Assembly: GCF_044324875.1 (NCBI RefSeq)
Contig: NZ_CP172185.1
From: Escherichia coli
GTDB taxonomy: Bacteria > Pseudomonadota > Gammaproteobacteria > Enterobacterales > Enterobacteriaceae
Reading direction: 5' to 3' (one strand)
Length of the DNA: 64,000 nucleotides
A model generated the notes under the pieces. It saw only the letters and a program-made list of their open reading frames with translations, ran no database searches and was not told the origin of the DNA. The position numbers and the translations under genes were made by a program. Shown in pieces: positions 11,509-60,741 of the stretch; the first letter of the stretch is position 1, and each line of letters opens with the position of its first letter.

Positions 11509-14354
11509 ATGAAAATCTGTCTTTACCATACCCTGAATCCTGAAACGATCCCGGGCTATAAAAAGTTTGCGCAGGCCATTGAGGCAGATAATTTCGCGCA
11601 GGCGGATGTGCGTAAAATTGATACTAATCTCTACCGGGCACGCCTCAGTATCCGGGATCGGTTGTTGTTTTCACTTTACCGTTACCGTGGTGAGACGGTC
11701 TGCCTGGTACTGGAATATCTGCGTAACCATGCTTACCACACGTCACGTTTTCTGCGCAGGAATGTGGTGATCGACGAGGCGCGGCTGCAGCTGCAACCGG
11801 TGCCGGATCCGGCAGATGCAGACGCCGGTACACTGACGTATCTCAACCCCACTCACGGGCGTTTTCACTACCTGGATAAAATGCTCTCTTTTGATGATGA
11901 CCAGCAGGCGCTGTATGAACATCCGATGCCACTGGTGATTGTCGGCTCCGCCGGCAGCGGAAAGACGGCACTGTTACTGGAGAAAATGAAGCAGGCCGGG
12001 GGCGATATTCTGTATCTCAGCCTTTCGTCATTTCTGGTGGAAAAAGCCCGCACACTCTATCACGCATCTGGTGAAGAACATGACGGGCAGACCATTGATT
12101 TTCTGTCGCTGAGCGAGTTTCTGGAAACCCTGCGCATTCCGGAAGGGCGGGAGGTGACGTTCAGTGCGTTCAGCAACTGGCTGCCCCGCAACCGGACCAC
12201 CGCTGCACTGGGCTCTGGCCATACCCTGTATGAGGAATTTCGTGGTGTCATTGGTGCCGTTGCTTCTGACAACGGACCGCTGTCCCGGGAGGCGTATCTG
12301 TCGCTGGGAGTACGTCAGTCACTTTATGATATGGATGACCGTCCGGCGGTTTACGCCCTGTTTGAGCGTTATGTTGCATGGCTGAAACAGTCGCGTCAGT
12401 ATGACAGTAATCTTCTCAGCCACCAGTACCTGCCACTGGCCGGGCACCGTTATGATGTGGTTTTTGTGGATGAAGTGCAGGATATGACGCCTGTGCAGCT
12501 GCGGCTGGTTCTGAAAACCCTGCGTCATCCCGGTCAGTTTGTACTCTGCGGCGATGCCAATCAGATAGTTCATCCCAGCTTTTTTCCTGGAGTGCCCTCA
12601 AAAGCCTCTTTTTCCGGCAGCAACAGAACGAGGCTGCCGTGAATATTCTGCAGGCGAATTACCGTAACGGGCACCATGTCACCGCACTGGCTAACCGGCT
12701 GCTCAGACTTAAACTGGCCCGGTTCAGTGCCATTGACCGGGAAAGTCACCATTTTGTCAGAAGCTGCGGGCAGACGGAAGGCACCATCAGGCTGCTGGAA
12801 GACCGGGAAGCCACCCGCCATGAGCTGAACAGCAAAACCTCCCGCTCAAACCGTGTGGCGGTGATTGTGATGCAGCCGGAGCAGAAAGCACAGGCCCGGC
12901 GCTGGTTCAGTACACCGCTGGTTTTTTCGGTTCAGGAAGTGAAGGGGCTCGAGTACGAAACGGTGATCCTGTACAACATGGTCAGCAGTACCCGTAAGGC
13001 ATTTGATGATATCTGCGAAGGGATCAATCCGGCAGATCCTGAGGGTGAGGTGCGTTATGCCCACCCCCGGGACCGGCAGGATCGTTCAGCAGAAATCTAC
13101 AGGTTTTTCACCAACGCGCTGTATGTTGCGCTCACCCGTGCCACGCACAACGTGTACCTTGTTGAGCAGGAGGTGGCCCATCCGCTGTGGTCCCTGCTGG
13201 CCCTCACGCATCATGAAACGCAACTGGAGCTGCAGGAAGAGATTTCCAGCCGTGATGAGTGGCAGAAAACCGCTCACCTGCTGGAAAAACAGGGGAAGCA
13301 GGAGCAGGTGGACACCATCCGCAGTATGATCCTGCAGGAGTCAGAAGTACCGTGGCAGATCTTCAGCGCAGAGGATGCGCGGCAGTGGAAACAGCAGATC
13401 CTCAGCGGGACGGCGGACAAAGCCACGAAACTGCAGGCGCTGGAATACAGCCTGATTTATTCCCTGTTTCCGCTGTATAATGCGCTGTACCGGGAAGATT
13501 TTAAGCCCACAAGGCAGCCCCGGACCCGGAGCCAGCAGTTACTGGAGCAGAAGTATTTTCGTCCCTACTCAGTGAATAATCCGGTCGCCGTGCTGAGGGA
13601 TATTGAACGTTATGGTGTTGATCACCGCTCGCCGTTTAATCTTACGCCGCTGATGCTGGCAGCCCGGGCGGGGAACACGGCGCTGGTTCAGTTGCTGCTG
13701 GATCGTGGTGCCGATCCCACGCTGACGGCAAATGACGGGCTGGCGGCGTATCATCATGTTCTGTCAGCGGCGGTCAGCACGCCCCGTTATGCGCAGCAGA
13801 AGGGGGCACAACTCTATGCCTTGCCGGGACCGGAAAGCCTGTCACTGCAGGTGGAAGGGCGGCTTGTCAAACTGGACAACCGGCAGATGGCAATGTTTCT
13901 GGTGATCCTGATGCAGGCATTGTTTTACACGCATCTGGGGAATGCTCTGGTTTTTTCAGAAGCCTTCAGTGCGGCACGACTGGCAGAGTGTGTCGCCCAC
14001 TTTCCTGAAGCCCTGCTGCCGGAACGCCGCAGGCGGAGGAATTATATCAGCAGCCAGCTTTCTCAGCATGAAGTTAACAGCAAGAACCCTTATGGAAAAA
14101 AGCTGTTTCTGCGACTGAGGCATGGTCAGTATATTCTTAATCCGGGGCTGAAAATCAGGCAGAATGACGGGTGGTACCCGGTTTACGACTTGCAGTCACC
14201 GGAAGATCTCGGTCATGATTTACAGACGTATCTGCAGGACATGCCCCCGTACATTCTGGAGATTCTGGGGGGCAGGAAGGATGTTTACGAACAAAGTAAG
14301 GGGTCTGTCGGATACTGGGTGGCGATGATCCGCCGTCACAGTGGTGAGCCGTAA
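11509..14354 (+). pseudogene. UvrD/Rep-like SF1 helicase with C-terminal ankyrin repeats, split by a frameshift in a T6 tract (12580-12585)
   Basis: Walker A GSAGSGKT, motif II VFVDEVQD, motif III CGDANQ in frame 1; downstream NYRNG, ALTRATH motifs and ankyrin repeat (LTPLMLAARAGNTALVQLLLDRGADP) in frame 3; adding one T restores one ORF of about 947 aa. Confidence 0.7.
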
Positions 14355-16324: not shown

Positions 16325-16545
16325 CTGCACGTCAGCGCCTCCCTTACCCTGGTCAGGACTTCACTGCCTGCCACAAACTCCCGTGTCAGTACTTCGCGGC
16401 CTGACGCGCTCACCCTACTCAGTCCTTCAGAGCCCGCCTCCGGTACCTGGCAAGGCAGACGCCGGGGCGCAATAAAATAAATCAACCATCGCAGGGCGGC
16501 GATCATTCGCAACAACCGCTGATGACGAGCCCAGAAACGTGTCAA
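16325..16545. repeat. copy A of a ~220-bp diverged non-coding repeat (second copy at 22395-22625)
   Basis: about 75 percent identity to 22395-22625, shared core AATAAAATAAATCA-CCATCGCAGGGCG-CGATCATTCGCA and paired internal direct repeats CCCTGGTCAGGACTTCAC / CCGTGTCAGTACTTCGC. Confidence 0.6.
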
Positions 16546-56628: not shown

Positions 56629-58647
56629 ATGCGTCTCTATTTATGTGAAAAACCTTCACAGGCCGCTGATATAGCCAGAGTACTTGGGGCTGCCAGACGT
56701 GGTGATGGTGCGATTGAAGGTAAGGACTTTGTTGTGACCTGGGCCTTTGGTCACTTGCTGGAGCAGGCGCCACCGGAGGCGTATGGTGAACAGTTTGGCA
56801 GCCCCTGGAAAATTGACGTTTTGCCGGTCTTTCCTAAACAGTGGAAGATGGTGGTGAAGGATAATGTCGGGAAGCAGTTTAATGTGATCAGCCGCCTTCT
56901 CCGTAAGACTGATGAAGTGGTGATTGCCACTGACGCCGATCGTGAAGGCGAAATTATCGCAAGGGAACTGCTGGATTATTGTGGTTATACCGGCGTTGTG
57001 CGCCGTCTCTGGCTGTCCGCACTGGATGAGAGCAGTATCAGGGAGGCGCTGGACAGAATACTGCCCGGAGAGGAGACCGAGAAGTTATATGAAGCCGGTA
57101 AGGGACGCAGCCGGGCTGACTGGCTGACGGGGATCAACCTGACGCGTCTGTATACCCTGAAAGCCAGGGGGTGTGGTGTGTCCGGCGTCCTCTCTGTTGG
57201 CAGGGTGCAGACGCCCACGCTTGCGATGGTGGTCAGACGGGACGCGGAAATAAAAAATTTTATTCCGGTACCTTACTGGCAACTGTATCTCTGGCTGGAG
57301 AAGGATAATGTGCGTTTTCGTACCACCTGGATTGCGGCAGCGCAGTACTGCGATACTGAAAAACGGTGTGTGAATGTGCAGGCGGCAACAGCCGTCCTGT
57401 CACAGTGTCGTCAGGCAGGTGTTGCTGTTGTCAGGGATGTCAGCAGCAGACGGGAGAAAAAGCAGCCTCCGCTGTGTTTTTCGCTCGGAACGTTGCAGGA
57501 GGTCTGTTCGCGCAAATTTGGCCTCGGAGCGCAGGCTGTTCTTGATATAGCCCAGTCGCTGTACGAAAAGCATAAGGCGACAACATATCCGCGTACAGAT
57601 TGCGGTTATCTGCCGGTATCAATGCACAAAGAAGTGCCTGACGTACTGGCGGCGCTGGAAAAAACCGATCCGGATATTGCCACGGAGCTGGCAAAACTCA
57701 GTCCTGATATTGTGTCGGGGATCTGGAACGACAGGAAGATCACCGCGCATCATGCGATAATCCCCACCCGTCAGCCGTTTAATATTGTGGCGCTGAGTGA
57801 TAATGAGCTTAAGGTGTACCGGTTAATTCGTCAGCATTATCTGGCTCAGTTTTTACCCATGCAGGAGTCGGATGTCACAGAGGCCACATTTCTTGTTGCG
57901 GGGCAGTTGTTCGGAACGCGGGGACGGGTGGAGGTTGTCAGGGGATGGCGTGCGCTTTTTGTGTCAGATTCGGCGGGAGAGGAAGAGGATGTTGCAGACG
58001 ATGAGCAGGCGATGCCCCTTCCCGTACTGGCAAAAGGTGATGAATGTCGTCCTGCTGAAGCTGAACTCAAAGAGATGCAGACCACGCCACCACGTCATTA
58101 TACGGAAGGCACGCTGATTGCGGCGATGAAAAATGCTGCGGGTATGGTGAGTGATCCGGCACTGAAAAAAGTGTTACGCGAAAATGCGGGGCTGGGTACT
58201 GAAGCGACCCGCGCAGAAATACTGGAAACGTTGTTCACCCGCAAATATATCGAGAAGCAGGGTAAGCATATCCGTGCCACGCAACTGGGGGCGGAGCTGA
58301 TAGCGGGATTGCCGGAGGCGCTGACCAGTCCGGGAACAACGGCGCTGTGGGAACAGGCTCTGGATGATATTGCACAGGGTAAACTGTCACTGTCGTCATT
58401 TATGGAGAAGCAGAAACAGTGGCTTAACCACCTGGTGGCCGGTGCAAGGCAGCAGCCACTGCAGATCACGGCACCGGTTACGCCTGCATGCCCTCTTTGC
58501 AGGGGAAGAATGCGGAAGGTGAAGATGAAAAGCGGGAAAGGGGAATTCTGGAGTTGTCAGCGTTATCCGGAGTGTAAGGGAGTGATTTCAGAGCAGAAAC
58601 CGACATCCGGGAAACGGGGCGGCAGAAAAATTAAAAAGCGTGGATGA
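56629..58647 (+). CDS. topB: DNA topoisomerase III
   Basis: Toprim N-terminus (LYLCEKPSQA), catalytic Tyr region, C-terminal zinc ribbon CPLCRG...CQRYPEC. Confidence 0.85.
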   Translation: MRLYLCEKPSQAADIARVLGAARRGDGAIEGKDFVVTWAFGHLLEQAPPEAYGEQFGSPWKIDVLPVFPKQWKMVVKDNVGKQFNVISRLLRKTDEVVIATDADREGEIIARELLDYCGYTGVVRRLWLSALDESSIREALDRILPGEETEKLYEAGKGRSRADWLTGINLTRLYTLKARGCGVSGVLSVGRVQTPTLAMVVRRDAEIKNFIPVPYWQLYLWLEKDNVRFRTTWIAAAQYCDTEKRCVNVQAATAVLSQCRQAGVAVVRDVSSRREKKQPPLCFSLGTLQEVCSRKFGLGAQAVLDIAQSLYEKHKATTYPRTDCGYLPVSMHKEVPDVLAALEKTDPDIATELAKLSPDIVSGIWNDRKITAHHAIIPTRQPFNIVALSDNELKVYRLIRQHYLAQFLPMQESDVTEATFLVAGQLFGTRGRVEVVRGWRALFVSDSAGEEEDVADDEQAMPLPVLAKGDECRPAEAELKEMQTTPPRHYTEGTLIAAMKNAAGMVSDPALKKVLRENAGLGTEATRAEILETLFTRKYIEKQGKHIRATQLGAELIAGLPEALTSPGTTALWEQALDDIAQGKLSLSSFMEKQKQWLNHLVAGARQQPLQITAPVTPACPLCRGRMRKVKMKSGKGEFWSCQRYPECKGVISEQKPTSGKRGGRKIKKRG

Positions 58648-58847
58648 TGATTACATGCTTTTTTTTATTTGTTAAAGTGCATACGCTTTGATGCGTACCC
58701 TGCTGACCACAGTAAAGAGCGGGCAGCTCTTCGGTCCGGTGATCGGCTCTACACACCAGCTGGATCACAAGGCGCATAAACTCCGTGAAAACCGCGCCGG
58801 GAGAAATCCCCGGAGACTGATGAGATAAACTACAGGGCTGGTAACCC

Positions 58848-58880
58848 CGGGCACCGTTTTTACGGTGCCCTTTTTATTTT
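58848..58880 (+). terminator. Rho-independent terminator
   Basis: CGGGCACCG-TTTTTA-CGGTGCCC followed by TTTTTATTTT. Confidence 0.7.
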
Positions 58881-58927
58881 GGTATTGACTTTCTTTGTGT
58901 GAGCTTTAAATATGGCAGGGCTAACTT

Positions 58928-59110
58928 GTCGCTCCGGCGACCACCAATGTTCCATAGTGGCCTGTGAGGAACGCCTTCGGGTGGCCCATGTCGCTTCAGC
59001 GACCACCAATGTTCCATGTGGCCTGTGAGGAACGCCTTCGGGTGGCCCACGTCGCTCCGGCGACCACCAATGCTTCATCTGACCTGTGAGGAGCGCCTTC
59101 GGGTGGTCAG
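58928..59110. repeat. three tandem ~61-bp repeats
   Basis: GTCGCTCCGGCGACCACCAATGTTCCAT-GTGGCCTGTGAGGAACGCCTTCGGGTGGCCCA x3 with a few substitutions. Confidence 0.8.
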
Positions 59111-59357
59111 TTTTACACCTCCTGAGCCTGAAAGGAGCTGTGCGTACTGAAGGGATATATTCCCGGAAGTACGGGCAAATCTGCACACCTTTGAGAGCAG
59201 ATGTCACTGCGGTTTTCCGTGATGATGAAGGCTTTTTTTACTGCACAGACAGCCGGAAATTCAGCTGATTCCGGCATCCCCGACGGGAACTATCACTCCC
59301 GTCAGGGCTGGTGATGTTCTCCGTCATATCTTTTTTTCACTCCATGGAGAAATCATC

Positions 59358-59822
59358 ATGTCTGCAACTAACTCTACTTCTGCAAAAACTGAATACTTCA
59401 ACCTGACCATGAAAGGTCTTGGGTATCTCAGCAATGTACGTCAGGTTAACCATCAGAACGGTTCGTTCCTCAGCTGTGTGATTAACGCACTGAGTGGACC
59501 AACGGACAATCCGTCCTATACGCGTTTTGATGTTACGGTTGCCGGTAAAGAGGCGACCACCCTGATCTCCCGCTGCCAGAAAGCAGTGGATGAGGACCGC
59601 AAGGTACTGCTTGGTTTTACGTTAAGCAACCTTGCCACCGACATTTTCACCCTGAACAAGGGGGAGCATGCCGGTGAGCAACGCGTCAGCCTGAAAGCCC
59701 GCCTGATCAAGGTGGACTGGATAAAAATAGGCCAGGAGCAGGTCTATAAGGCTGAAAAAGCGGAGTCCCAGCCACCGAGCCATGGCACCACAAAACGTGA
59801 ATACGCAGAAGACTCCTTCTGA
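59358..59822 (+). CDS. conserved ICE protein (STY4534-like, putative)
   Basis: 154-aa ORF downstream of the 61-bp repeats. Confidence 0.4.
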   Translation: MSATNSTSAKTEYFNLTMKGLGYLSNVRQVNHQNGSFLSCVINALSGPTDNPSYTRFDVTVAGKEATTLISRCQKAVDEDRKVLLGFTLSNLATDIFTLNKGEHAGEQRVSLKARLIKVDWIKIGQEQVYKAEKAESQPPSHGTTKREYAEDSF

Positions 59823-59921
59823 TCGCGTATTTTTCTCACTGCCTCCCTGATAAAGAAAACAGACCACCATCAGGGAGGTCTGTTTTCTTATTGTGTTTAC
59901 TGAACTTTAAGGAAACAAATT

Positions 59922-60125
59922 ATGACTTCTACAAACGGTATTCTCGCAGCTGCGGCAGGTTATACATTACCTCTGGAAATACTCAAAAGTGGGCGCGGAT
60001 ATTATATTGGCACTCAGTGTTGTGAGGGGCCGGTATCCCGTGAATCAGAAGAGTATTTCAAAAAATATGAGCAGGCTGAGCGGGCGCTGAAAAATGGCAC
60101 CTGGACACAACGTCATGCCTGGTAA
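59922..60125 (+). CDS. small hypothetical protein
   Basis: 67-aa ORF with good spacing to ssb. Confidence 0.35.
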   Translation: MTSTNGILAAAAGYTLPLEILKSGRGYYIGTQCCEGPVSRESEEYFKKYEQAERALKNGTWTQRHAW

Positions 60126-60137
60126 TGAGGAGGTGCT

Positions 60138-60695
60138 ATGGCTTCACGTGGCGTAAACAAAGTTATCCTGATAGGACATCTGGGGCAGGATCCGGATATC
60201 CGGTATTTCCCCAATGGCGGTGGCGTTGTGGCGAATCTGTCACTGGCGACCAGCGACACCTGGCGGGATAAACAGAGCGGTGAAATGAAGGAAGTCACTG
60301 AATGGCACCGCGTTGTTCTCTATGGAAAACTGGCTGAAGTTGCCTGCGAGTACCTGCATAAGGGGTCGCAGGTGTATATAGAAGGCCAGCTTAAAACCCG
60401 TAAATGGTTTGACCAGCAGAATGGTGTGGACCGTTATTCAACTGAGGTTGTTGTGGGCGTGAATGGTGTCATGCAGATGCTGGGTTCATCGCGTCAGCAG
60501 GGCGCTTCCGGTAATGGTGCTTCAGCACCGGCACAAGGGGGCCAGGGACAGCCGCCGAAGACGACCGGACAGACTGGTCGTGCTACCCGGACAACTTCAA
60601 CAGGTAATGGTGCTCCACCTGTGGACTTTGACGATGATATCCCCTTTATGGGGATCGGGTATGGCATGGAACGGCGAATTATTCATGCCATGTAA
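60138..60695 (+). CDS. ssb: single-stranded DNA-binding protein with 15-aa extension past the canonical DDDIPF tail
   Basis: OB-fold N-terminus, Gly/Gln-rich linker, DFDDDIPF followed by [15 protein letters not shown]. Confidence 0.8.
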
Positions 60696-60741
60696 TATTA
60701 ACCATGGGGCGATACGCCCCACTTTTTTATCCGGAGGTTAC

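Follow-up and report, generated by a model that had tools for sequence, protein, structure and literature searches.

STAXI RNA repeats between topB and the DUF3577-orf-ssb operon of an SPI-7-type ICE of Escherichia coli

In an SPI-7-type ICE of Escherichia coli, a hairpin and three near-identical tandem repeats follow the topoisomerase gene topB, which raises the question of whether these repeats act as DNA or as RNA, and what they do for the element. An earlier note on this DNA had considered two readings, a second protein-binding DNA array and a structured RNA in the ICE backbone. The 64-kb stretch of DNA analysed here is referred to as the window.

Extent and family of the repeat array

Tandem Repeats Finder reports a single array at 58927-59106 with a period of 61 nt, 2.9 copies, 90% matches and no indels (score 295). 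Direct reading places the canonical units behind the terminator at 58927-58988 (62 nt), 58989-59049 (61 nt) and 59050-59110 (61 nt), which agrees with the three near-identical repeats of about 61 bp that had been claimed. The 22-nt core CTGNGAGGANCGCCTTCGGGTG is present in three copies in the window, all of which are located inside the array, and was found in none of 100 shuffles. Loose patterns and the covariance model R1, run over the 64-kb window, gave no further units besides these three, the remaining matches scoring 11.5 bits or less. The feature had been given an extent of 58848-59110; its start and the repeats are real, but the array runs past 59110 with two diverged units up to about 59232, which are followed by a U7 tract, and the Rfam match reaches 59233.

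The STAXI family of Rfam (RF01728) matches the locus twice on the + strand, with 66.3 bits (59050-59233) and 61.6 bits (58927-59049) at a gathering score of 40.5, and matches are confined to the + strand in both E-value mode and gathering mode. In this SPI-7-type ICE of E. coli, the repeats form the core of a STAXI RNA; the family is already known, and the locus is not new. The structured RNA proposed in the earlier note is supported by a + strand Rfam match above threshold and by covarying helices and a pseudoknot, and additionally by a promoter at a fixed upstream distance and a transcript in Pectobacterium (PMC4710047). Weinberg et al. (2010, Genome Biol 11:R31) described STAXI as an RNA of repeated pseudoknots that is found in mobile elements of enterobacteria, close to genes for topoisomerases, Ssb, anti-restriction proteins and integrases. 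The published alignment has matching pseudoknot columns and contains sequences from SPI-7 of S. Typhi and from HAI2 of Pectobacterium (Weinberg 2010); E. coli O157 Sakai is represented in the original seed. STAXI is classed as an sRNA gene, and no function, binding partner or phenotype of the RNA is reported in the open-access literature mentioning STAXI.

The locus shares with the family the sequence and fold of the unit, the pseudoknot, the tandem repetition, the strand relative to the neighbouring genes and the Enterobacterales host range, as well as topoisomerase III and ssb as neighbours in an SPI-7-type ICE. All three units possess the 10-nt 5' internal loop, the UUCG-capped inner stem and the CCAAUG-adjacent pseudoknot of STAXI. 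The family occurs with at least two, usually three units in tandem, and here three canonical and two diverged units are found; it lies next to Ssb, topoisomerase, anti-restriction or integrase genes of Enterobacterales, and here it is located between topB and DUF3577-orf-ssb. In contrast to the Rfam model, which contains the small 5' hairpin once, the hairpin is repeated with every unit in this array, which lengthens the period from 46 to 61. This is why the model breaks the locus up into two matches of about 62-66 bits, whereas single matches of 90-139 bits are obtained elsewhere. Among the 72 arrays examined, only this one has three hairpin-plus-pseudoknot units. As such, the finding matters little, as a curated RNA family is met again in its name-giving genomic context. 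Its residual value is that STAXI has been without known function since 2010, yet it stands ahead of ssb, anti-restriction and integrase-like genes that decide the survival of conjugative elements in a new host.

Fold and covariation of the STAXI units

Each unit consists of a short hairpin (H1) followed by a pseudoknot, in which the five bases right after the invariant CCAAUG pair with the internal loop of a second hairpin, whose inner stem is closed by a UUCG tetraloop. The pseudoknot is formed by GUUCC after CCAAUG and GGAAC in the internal loop. In unit 1 (58927-58988, + strand), the H1 hairpin at 58928-58941 (GUCGC-UCCG-GCGAC) is followed by the linker CCACCAAUG, GUUCC at 58949-58953 pairs with GGAAC at 58968-58972, and the stems are GGCC/GGCC (outer) and GCC-UUCG-GGU (inner); the R1 covariance model matches 58941-58990 with 58.7 bits. 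Unit 2 (58989-59049, + strand) has its H1 at 58990-59003, and GUUCC at 59011-59015 pairs with GGAAC at 59029-59033 (R1 match 59003-59051, 61.1 bits). In unit 3 (59050-59110, + strand), H1 is located at 59051-59064, the pseudoknot is formed by GCUUC at 59072-59076 and GGAGC at 59090-59094, and the outer stem is CUGACC/GGUCAG; its pseudoknot and its outer stem both differ from those of units 1 and 2 by compensatory changes (R1 match 59064-59112, 64.1 bits). E. coli strains differ in copy number, with three or two units, and strain FDAARGOS_1300, which lacks unit 2, has exactly one 61-nt unit fewer.

Pairing was assessed across 51 distinct units from 59 loci. Pairing holds in 97.9% of the cells of this sample, and 138 cells show changes on both sides, whereas slid controls reach 32-51% pairing. 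The units were drawn with a pattern fixing 24 bases, which biases the sample to well-conserved units and leaves the fixed columns without information on covariation. Pairing in the pseudoknot helix is 99.6%, with two covarying pairs, and five of the six pairs of the outer stem covary. The blocks CCAATG, CTGNGAG and CGCCTTCGGGTG are invariant, every unit contains CTG, and the internal loop alternates between GAGGA and GAGAA, covarying with its pseudoknot partner. The alignment contains 82 G.U cells, one G.U being invariant, and pairing drops from 97.9% on the + strand to 87.4% on the complement. Since the G.U pairs are limited to one strand, the + strand is the structured one. The CCACC/GGTGG complementarity within the units, which had been noticed earlier, is present in the sequence, but it was rejected as the conserved pairing, as it shows no covariation and is 81.6% paired compared to 81.3% in shuffles. 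Minimum-free-energy folds of the whole region were not used as evidence, because they cannot represent pseudoknots and mispaired neighbouring repeats.

The canonical units are followed by the diverged unit A (59111-59178, + strand; CUCC ... CCUGAAAGGAG), whose inner hairpin, GUACUGAAGGGAUAUAUUCCCGGAAGUAC, is enlarged. It lies inside the Rfam match 59050-59233 and also follows canonical units in other loci. In the diverged unit B (59179-59239, + strand), AUCUGC at 59179-59184 forms a pseudoknot with GCAGAU at 59197-59202, and the Rfam alignment gives an outer stem of CCUUU at 59188-59192 and GAAGG at 59227-59231. The pseudoknot of unit B has at least 6 bp in all of the 26 distinct sequences, whose 5' strands come in 20 versions. 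Directly after unit B lies the U7 tract (59233-59239, + strand), which is likely a weak terminator and the end of the cassette. The helix in front of it is weak, and many other loci lack U7, as does one of the three cassettes of the ICE, which makes a defined 3' end of the STAXI RNA uncertain. The cassette as a whole spans about 58920-59239.

Transcription signals and neighbouring genes

The topB ORF extends from 56629 to 58647, and an intrinsic terminator (58849-58880, + strand) starts 201 nt after its stop codon. It is built from GGGCACCG-TTTTTA-CGGTGCCC and the T-run TTTTTATTTT. The terminator scan gives a stem at 58849-58870 of 9 bp, seven of them G-C, with a 4-nt loop, and this G+C-rich hairpin directly precedes the T-run, as is the case for Rho-independent terminators; the GC hairpin and T-run that had been placed 200 bp after topB are thus found as claimed. 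Equivalent terminators are located just 5' of the STAXI promoter in other topB-linked loci. The terminator closes the topB transcript and insulates the STAXI promoter.

A sigma-70-type promoter follows at 58885-58913 on the + strand, with the -35 box TTGACT (58885-58890), a 17-nt spacer and the -10 box AAATAT (58908-58913). A generic promoter scanner did not flag it, because its -10 box fits the consensus at only three of six positions; the promoter was established by comparison among arrays instead. It matches position for position the TTGAC[AG]-17/18-[GT]AAAAT promoter of other arrays, and a promoter whose -10 box ends 27-33 nt 5' of CCACCAAUG is present in 52 of 62 distinct arrays, while 0.16 would be expected at random positions. 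Transcription would accordingly start near 58920. RNA-seq has detected STAXI RNA at the orthologous site in Pectobacterium, 3' of topB of P. atrosepticum (PMC4710047), and RT-qPCR has detected it in E. coli vesicles, where it was reported to be abundant (PMC12370729).

The 201 nt between topB and the terminator had been regarded as room for a small transcript. This was a fair lead, and what was found there is a conserved pseudoknotted element at 58726-58824 on the + strand, consisting of a hairpin (GUGAUC/GAUCAC) and the stems A (GGCGC/GCGCC), B (CUCCG/CGGAG) and C (GGGA/UCCC), of which A and B cross. Blastn and alignment revealed its conservation in 10 other loci; 97.7% of the cells are paired and 10 pairs are changed on both sides, compared to 31-49% pairing in slid controls. 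The covariance model R2 of the element matches only beside topB-STAXI junctions, and no Rfam family matches 58726-58824 on the + strand. The element is not part of STAXI and apparently unannotated, and it may be a small new motif, for which the basis is nine sequences of one ICE lineage.

Downstream of the cassette lies the leader of the DUF3577 gene (59252-59357, + strand), which contains hairpins at 59252-59275 and 59279-59307 and a Shine-Dalgarno-sequestering hairpin, in which GAUGUUCUCC (59313-59322) pairs with GGAGAAAUCAUC (59346-59357) on the + strand. E. coli variants preserve the pairing of this hairpin via different changes (GUGUUCUCC/GGAGAACAC), and the leader layout recurs in many loci where the downstream gene is at a short distance. 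The operon headed by the STAXI RNA (59358-60730, + strand) comprises a DUF3577/STY4534-family gene (59358-59822), a small ORF (59922-60125) and ssb (60138-60695); these assignments agree with the RefSeq annotation of the identical locus of E. coli TUM1886. From the cassette to the end of ssb, the terminator scan found no site other than the weak U7; the operon terminator at 60705-60721, with its T-run on the + strand, is the first strong one. A Pfam search assigned the product of 59358-59822 to DUF3577 (E 1.4e-58) and gave no match to a toxin family. As for a relationship of DUF3577 to SSB, searches with the single sequence and with a profile gave no PDB sequence match, and hhalign against the ICE's own SSB yielded a probability of 0.3%. 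An AlphaFold model from a 10-sequence alignment had a mean pLDDT of 40.8 and was not used. A homology of DUF3577/STY4534 to InrR of ICEclc, which is encoded in an inrR-ssb cluster, is a lead only.

Possible roles of the STAXI RNA

The STAXI unit is conserved in at least 59 loci of many Enterobacterales genera. According to the earlier note, absence or poor conservation of the repeats in homologous ICEs would have spoken against the proposal; the comparison revealed that they are kept at the same position. The period is 61 nt here and 46 nt in many other arrays. Based on flanking genes called with a crude ORF rule, the gene 3' of the array shares its strand in 50 cases and lies on the opposite strand in four, and the gene 5' of the array is divergent in 16 arrays; therefore, STAXI cannot simply be a 3' UTR. 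The downstream genes are of the Integrase_1 type (26 arrays), DUF3577 (14) or one unknown family (8), and ArdC-like and SSB genes are also found. Their distance to the array ranges from about 85 to more than 1000 nt, a spread that is unusual for a single cis-regulatory mechanism.

Two more near-identical STAXI cassettes are present in the same ICE, one before an integrase-like gene and one before the ArdA operon, and the three cassettes together contain seven canonical units. They are about 97% identical from approximately the transcription start to GAAGGC, and the near-identity stops at the end of unit B, whereas the promoters and downstream leaders are unrelated. STAXI is also carried by small plasmids of 3-5 kb without an element-encoded partner or a downstream partner gene, which points to a host factor; some of these plasmids encode an HUH-type Rep. 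STAXI is not a phage feature in the collections searched, since a phage genome collection gave no match and the IMG/VR viral contigs contained a single locus. The usual companion of STAXI 5' of integrase genes, the EFASI RNA motif (RF02957), has no match anywhere in the window, where a short leader runs straight into the DUF3577 gene. EFASI occurs in other loci and also in another part of this ICE, where it lies some 500 nt behind the second STAXI array and immediately ahead of an integrase-domain gene.

The best overall explanation, to which we give even odds (roughly 50%), is that STAXI RNA is a multivalent platform for a host protein, which regulates transcripts for DNA processing and establishment of the element. 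The sigma-70 promoter would start a new transcript after the topB terminator, whose first approximately 320 nt would be the STAXI cassette, followed by the leader that hides the ribosome-binding site and by the DUF3577-orf-ssb genes. The cassette would thus act as RNA, most likely as a multivalent platform for an Enterobacterales protein at the 5' end of transcripts, i.e., that of ssb here and those of the integrase-like gene and the ArdA operon elsewhere in the same ICE. Recruiting or titrating the host factor might then set which share of the transcripts ends at U7 as a free small RNA and which share is read on and translated. A possible parallel is found in phage T4, where the gene 32 mRNA carries a 5' pseudoknot and is autoregulated by the ssDNA-binding protein. 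By analogy, both systems would place a pseudoknot at the 5' end of an mRNA for an ssDNA-binding protein, before a controlled ribosome-binding site, although STAXI also precedes integrase-like and other genes.

Less likely is a free small RNA that acts in trans as a decoy or anti-defence factor, neutralizing a host nuclease or RNA-binding protein upon entry in the manner of ToxI or a CsrB-like sponge. The toxIN locus is arranged as a promoter, tandem pseudoknot units, a leaky terminator and the next gene. STAXI resembles it in having a promoter, short tandem pseudoknot repeats and a weak terminator before a gene, and a trans-acting RNA would suit the seven canonical units in three cassettes, the association with anti-restriction genes, the 3-5 kb plasmids without a downstream partner gene and the reported abundance in vesicles (PMC12370729). 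However, the STAXI units, at 46-61 nt, are longer than the repeats of ToxI-type RNAs in type III toxin-antitoxin systems and have no sequence relationship to them, and many loci have no strong terminator after the cassette. According to Pfam, no ToxN/AbiQ-, CptN- or TenpN-like endoribonuclease gene lies behind the array; the downstream gene is DUF3577 here and varies among arrays. A sponge of the CsrB/RsmZ type is contradicted by the loop GGA: it is not conserved, as GAA occurs in its place in other units, and it is base-paired within the pseudoknot, so that it is not a CsrA site. The sole CsrB match was to the terminator, with 15 bits compared to 71.

An ssDNA element, in which the + strand folds as DNA during conjugative transfer or rolling-circle replication and serves as a priming or assembly site like ssi or G4-type origins, is improbable. 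At G4-type origins, primase starts at CTG, and CTG is invariant in every STAXI unit; the neighbours topB, ssb, ArdA, ArdC and integrase all handle DNA or ssDNA, and the small plasmids with an HUH-type Rep pass through ssDNA. On rolling-circle plasmids, the displaced strand is normally the rep-sense strand, whereas the structured strand of STAXI plasmid L002 is antisense to rep. An ssDNA role was left open in the original STAXI paper (Weinberg 2010), and the same gene classes, ssb and anti-restriction genes, lie behind ssDNA promoters in the leading regions of plasmids (PMC11541004). With these Frpo/ssi promoters, STAXI also shares the occurrence of several copies per element in one orientation. 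In Frpo, however, a single long and imperfectly paired hairpin of the template (transferred) strand rebuilds the -35 and -10 boxes, whereas in STAXI the sense strand of the flanking genes folds into small pseudoknots, 3' of an ordinary duplex promoter whose hexamers lie in unpaired duplex DNA 5' of the motif. An ssDNA element would not need a duplex sigma-70 promoter at a fixed distance in most arrays, and the C(UUCG)G tetraloop stabilizes RNA but not DNA (Weinberg 2010). A role at the RNA level is favoured over one as ssDNA because of the fixed-distance promoter, the structure on the sense strand, the bounds of the cassette, which coincide with those of the predicted transcript, and the three copies heading three operons.

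Slightly less probable still is antitermination in cis, in which the RNA would bind the transcribing RNA polymerase, like the put RNAs of phage HK022, and allow read-through into the operon. The cassette directly follows the promoter at a fixed distance, is co-oriented with the downstream genes and is followed immediately by a U-run, but the terminator scan found none besides the weak U7 that would have to be overcome before the end of ssb, and neither sequence nor Rfam similarity to known antitermination RNAs was found. A duplex DNA array bound by a protein, i.e., an iteron, centromere or operator array, is very unlikely, although three near-identical direct repeats with invariant blocks in an ICE encoding ParA/ParB and replication proteins invite this reading. 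The second protein-binding array of the earlier note is not supported, as a duplex-DNA site does not explain compensatory changes and G.U pairs tolerated on one strand only; furthermore, helical spacing is not kept between periods of 61 and 46, and the motif occurs on plasmids without any ParB or ICE protein. A neutral tandem duplication or coding repeat without a function of its own, as could be imagined from the variable copy number and from ORFs of 41-115 aa overlapping the array on both strands, is refuted for practical purposes by the comparative data, i.e., the covarying unit in so many loci and genera, and no frame is kept across units, as 61 is not a multiple of three and unit 1 is one base longer.

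It is tempting but rather speculative to regard STAXI cassettes as the 5' module that the members of an "establishment regulon" have in common in enterobacterial ICEs and plasmids, with control via one shared host protein. If this were true, the ssb, integrase-like and ArdA operons would be synchronized or transiently boosted after entry into a new cell, and STAXI would correspond, at the RNA level, to the Frpo ssDNA promoters that F-like plasmids carry. The conserved pseudoknot in the topB 3' region (58726-58824) might belong to this circuit as well, as a part not yet described.

The STAXI array downstream of topB

The earlier note had described a terminator and three tandem repeats after topB, and both were confirmed where it had placed them. 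Tandem Repeats Finder detects one array at 58927..59106 (period 61, 2.9 copies, 90% matches, score 295), and reading of the sequence resolves it into three canonical plus-strand units at 58927-58988 (62 nt), 58989-59049 (61 nt) and 59050-59110 (61 nt). The array is real, rightly placed and more than a product of chance; all three copies of its 22-nt core CTGNGAGGANCGCCTTCGGGTG in the window fall inside the array, and none arose in 100 shuffles. The intrinsic terminator found by a terminator scan has a 9-bp stem with 7 G-C pairs (58849-58870, followed by TTTTTATTTT) and lies 201 nt past the stop codon of the topB ORF (672 aa, 56629..58647).

An Rfam scan of 58000-60000 revealed two plus-strand matches to the STAXI RNA (RF01728, gathering score 40.5 bits), one at 59050-59233 (66.3 bits) and a second at 58927-59049 (61.6 bits), and a scan of the whole window at gathering thresholds returned the same two matches as its only STAXI hits. 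The family is named after Ssbp, Topoisomerase, Antirestriction and XerDC Integrase, and the original description (Weinberg et al. 2010, PMC2864571) was of a pseudoknot present in two or three repeats near such genes in Enterobacteriales. Both SPI-7 of S. Typhi Ty2 and Pectobacterium atrosepticum are represented in the published seed alignment, the latter by three arrays, of which one (602059-602613) adjoins topB; the locus is therefore an ordinary family member in the name-giving context. The array is thus, with a probability of about 0.97, a STAXI RNA. The RNA family is already described, the context is typical and the locus itself is not new, so the remaining interest lies in the function of STAXI and in a small, possibly new motif upstream of the array.

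Fold and extent of the STAXI cassette

Related loci were gathered by scanning a single genome of each species for an exact pattern, which yielded 54 loci from Erwinia, Serratia, Pantoea, Citrobacter, Cedecea, Edwardsiella, Xenorhabdus, Morganella and others, and plasmid and E. coli records were added. Using nhmmer, 72 arrays were found, each with 1-3 canonical units. In A1, the alignment of 51 distinct unit cores, the fold is 97.9% paired compared with 32-51% for slid partners, and 138 cells are changed on both sides; the collecting pattern fixes 24 bases, and the covariation comes wholly from the free columns. The fold established in this way consists of an outer stem (A1 columns 17-22 with 43-48), the inner stem GCC-UUCG-GGU and a pseudoknot (columns 9-13 with 28-32), in which five bases from the G of the invariant CCAAUG onward pair with the internal-loop GRANC. 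The pseudoknot, which varies between GUUCC/GGAAC, GAUCC/GGAUC, GCUUC/GAAGC and GUUUC/GAAAC, is that of the published STAXI alignment. In the window array, compensatory changes set unit 3 apart from units 1 and 2: its pseudoknot is GCUUC/GGAGC where theirs is GUUCC/GGAAC, and its outer stem is CUGACC/GGUCAG. Of the two readings that the earlier note had offered, a structured RNA in the ICE backbone is upheld by the plus-strand Rfam matches and the covarying fold, and in the homologous ICEs compared, the repeats are kept at the same position. The CCACC/GGTGG pairing it had proposed for the units does not hold, being no more paired than shuffles (81.6% versus 81.3%) and not conserved.

The feature also runs beyond the third repeat, where the earlier note had ended it, to about 59239. 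Two diverged plus-strand units follow, both within the Rfam model match: unit A (59111-59178; CUCC ... CCUGAAAGGAG, with a long inner hairpin) and unit B (59179-59232; pseudoknot AUCUGC/GCAGAU, outer stem CCUUU/GAAGG), with a U7 tract (59233-59239, +) directly after unit B. Both trail the canonical units in essentially all loci compared, and the unit B pseudoknot is never shorter than 6 bp among the 26 distinct versions, whose 5' strands take 20 different forms. Most other loci carry the small 5' hairpin once, repeat later units every 46 nt and give a single Rfam STAXI match of 83-139 bits; in the window array, the hairpin recurs with each unit, which is why this locus is split into two matches of ~62-66 bits. 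Unit number is polymorphic, with three units in E. coli G6/7 and two in FDAARGOS_1300. The latter lacks exactly one 61-nt unit, corresponding to 58989-59049, and the intergenic regions of both strains are otherwise about 93% identical.

A coding repeat was rejected, as 61 is no multiple of three and unit 1 is one base longer. Among the short ORFs over the array, one of 115 aa on the minus strand (58860-59207) crosses the repeats and is most likely spurious. The entry 'antisense: ECA0527' given for STAXI in a Pectobacterium paper (PMC4710047) suggests that an ORF through the repeats has been annotated in that genus.

Strand, transcription and flanking elements

The structured strand is the plus strand, which is 97.9% paired compared with 87.4% for its complement; the fold contains 82 G.U cells, including one invariant G.U in the inner stem, and both the Rfam and our own covariance model of the unit match the plus strand only. 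A promoter of the form TTGA[CT]N, 16-18 nt, NANNNT stands ahead of the first hairpin in 52 of 62 distinct arrays, with 27-33 nt between the end of its -10 and CCACCAAUG; random positions in these loci, tested likewise, gave 0.16 hits on average. A -35 box of the TTGAA type occupies this place in several of the other arrays. In the window, the promoter comprises TTGACT (58885-58890), a 17-nt spacer and AAATAT (58908-58913) on the plus strand, which places the transcription start near 58920, about 8 nt ahead of the first hairpin. The next gene of at least 120 aa shares the strand of the array in 50 cases and is opposed to it in 4, and the upstream gene is divergent in 16 arrays; STAXI therefore stands at the head of a transcription unit rather than trailing one. 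Strand-specific RNA-seq recorded a 'STAXI sRNA' in the topB 3' region of P. atrosepticum (PMC4710047), STAXI was amplified from E. coli vesicle RNA (PMC12370729), and the C(UUCG)G tetraloop was used as an argument for RNA in the original STAXI paper (PMC2864571). Taken together, the G.U strand bias, promoter, gene orientation, published RNA and tetraloop make a function at the RNA level very likely. Weinberg et al. (PMC2864571) had left undecided whether STAXI acts as RNA or single-stranded DNA; the latter would require the sense strand to be the one transferred, and it leaves the fixed promoter distance unexplained. The protein-binding array considered in the earlier note was rejected, since a duplex-DNA site explains neither the compensatory changes nor the strand asymmetry nor the period of 61 nt here versus 46 nt elsewhere.

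Downstream of the U7 tract are two leader hairpins (59252-59275 and 59279-59307, +) and a third, in which GAUGUUCUCC (59313-59322, +) sequesters the Shine-Dalgarno region GGAGAAAUCAUC (59346-59357) directly 5' of the AUG of the DUF3577 gene at 59358. Related E. coli ICEs retain this helix with other bases (GUGUUCUCC/GGAGAACAC), and the leader layout recurs ahead of short-distance downstream genes in many STAXI loci. The terminator scan found no terminator beyond the U7 tract until 60705-60721, just past ssb; the unit therefore consists of promoter, STAXI cassette, leader, DUF3577, orf, ssb and terminator. The downstream protein (59358-59822, +) was assigned to DUF3577 (E 1.4e-58; STY4534 family). 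In every homologue, a P/Q-rich tail leads up to a terminal YAE[DN]SF, reminiscent of the acidic tip at the C terminus of bacterial SSB; sequence similarity of the protein to SSB or any PDB entry was not found, and its AlphaFold model was too poor to be used. Across the arrays, the downstream gene is Integrase_1-type in 26 (650-800 nt away, usually with an EFASI RNA between), DUF3577 in 14, one unknown family in 8 and otherwise a singleton, e.g., ArdC-like or SSB; topB lies upstream in 12.

The earlier note had also seen room for a small transcript before the terminator. This space indeed holds a conserved pseudoknotted segment between the topB stop and the terminator (58726-58824, +), for which a convincing promoter was not found. 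The segment is kept at the same position in ten other loci, making 11 in total from one ICE lineage, and folds into a hairpin and a pseudoknot in which GGCGC/GCGCC crosses CUCCG/CGGAG, with GGGA/UCCC nested. Nine sequences are 97.7% paired compared with 31-49% in slid controls, with 10 pairs changed on both sides and covariation in three of four helices. A covariance model of the motif matches at topB-STAXI junctions only, and its plus strand has no Rfam family match. Pantoea/Chimaeribacter-type ICEs lack the motif; there, 54 nt separate the end of topB from the first STAXI unit match, which places the STAXI promoter inside the end of topB. The segment could represent either an element of the 3' UTR or a small RNA whose 3' end is set by the 58849-58880 terminator, and it is possibly a new small motif. 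A weak minus-strand match to the isrK Hfq-binding RNA model (58776-58869; 27.4 bits against a gathering score of 50) coincides in part with the bidirectional terminator hairpin and is probably due to chance.

Other copies of the cassette and its possible role

The STAXI region is 100% identical to the chromosome of E. coli TUM1886, where it lies within an SPI-7-type ICE in the order parA, dnaB-PI, parB, STY4528-family gene, PFL_4669-family gene, topB, STAXI region, STY4534-family gene, orf, ssb, rpn, pilL and transfer genes. The ICE carries multiple copies: beyond the window (locus L061), second and third arrays lie on the same strand at 13564-13736 and 16359-16530. One is followed by an EFASI RNA (L061 14261-14383) and an integrase-domain gene, and the other stands at the head of a series of small genes, ardA among them. 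Over the stretch from approximately the transcription start (GCUAACUUGUCGC) to GAUGAAGGC (GAAGGC), the three cassettes share about 97% identity, whereas no alignment is possible between their promoters or between their downstream leaders; the functional and evolutionary unit therefore coincides with the transcribed cassette. A U-run closes two of the three. STAXI and EFASI also occur on one strand, without an integrase gene, on the E. coli plasmids NZ_CP059920.1 (3140 bp) and NZ_CP100506.1 (5319 bp). The smaller codes for little beyond an HUH-type Rep, and the STAXI-EFASI module takes up about a quarter of it, antisense to rep. As such tiny plasmids carry STAXI, any protein partner is more likely encoded by the host than by the element.

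The likeliest of the roles considered for the cassette is that of a multivalent RNA scaffold to which a host protein would bind. Located where the DNA-processing and establishment transcripts of the element begin, it would set the split between a free RNA of ~320 nt that stops at the U7 tract and an mRNA that reads through and is translated. This specific model is tentative and, taken by itself, less likely than not. Its main rival, a purely trans-acting decoy or anti-defence RNA, is compatible with it. The layout resembles that of ToxI-type antitoxins; however, no toxin gene follows the STAXI array. An antitermination element acting on transcription would have no terminators to act on besides the weak U7 site, and a CsrA sponge was rejected, as the GGA of the loop lacks conservation and is not free.

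The left end of the ICE lies at ~44300, with parA directly after the capsule (kps) cluster and an IS110 fragment; the other end is about 85 kb on, at a tyrosine integrase adjoining tRNA-Phe, so that the window holds only the first ~20 kb. In the chromosomal part upstream of the ICE, an ALIL frameshifting pseudoknot (1631-1747, +, 116 bits) indicates an IS3-family transposase.
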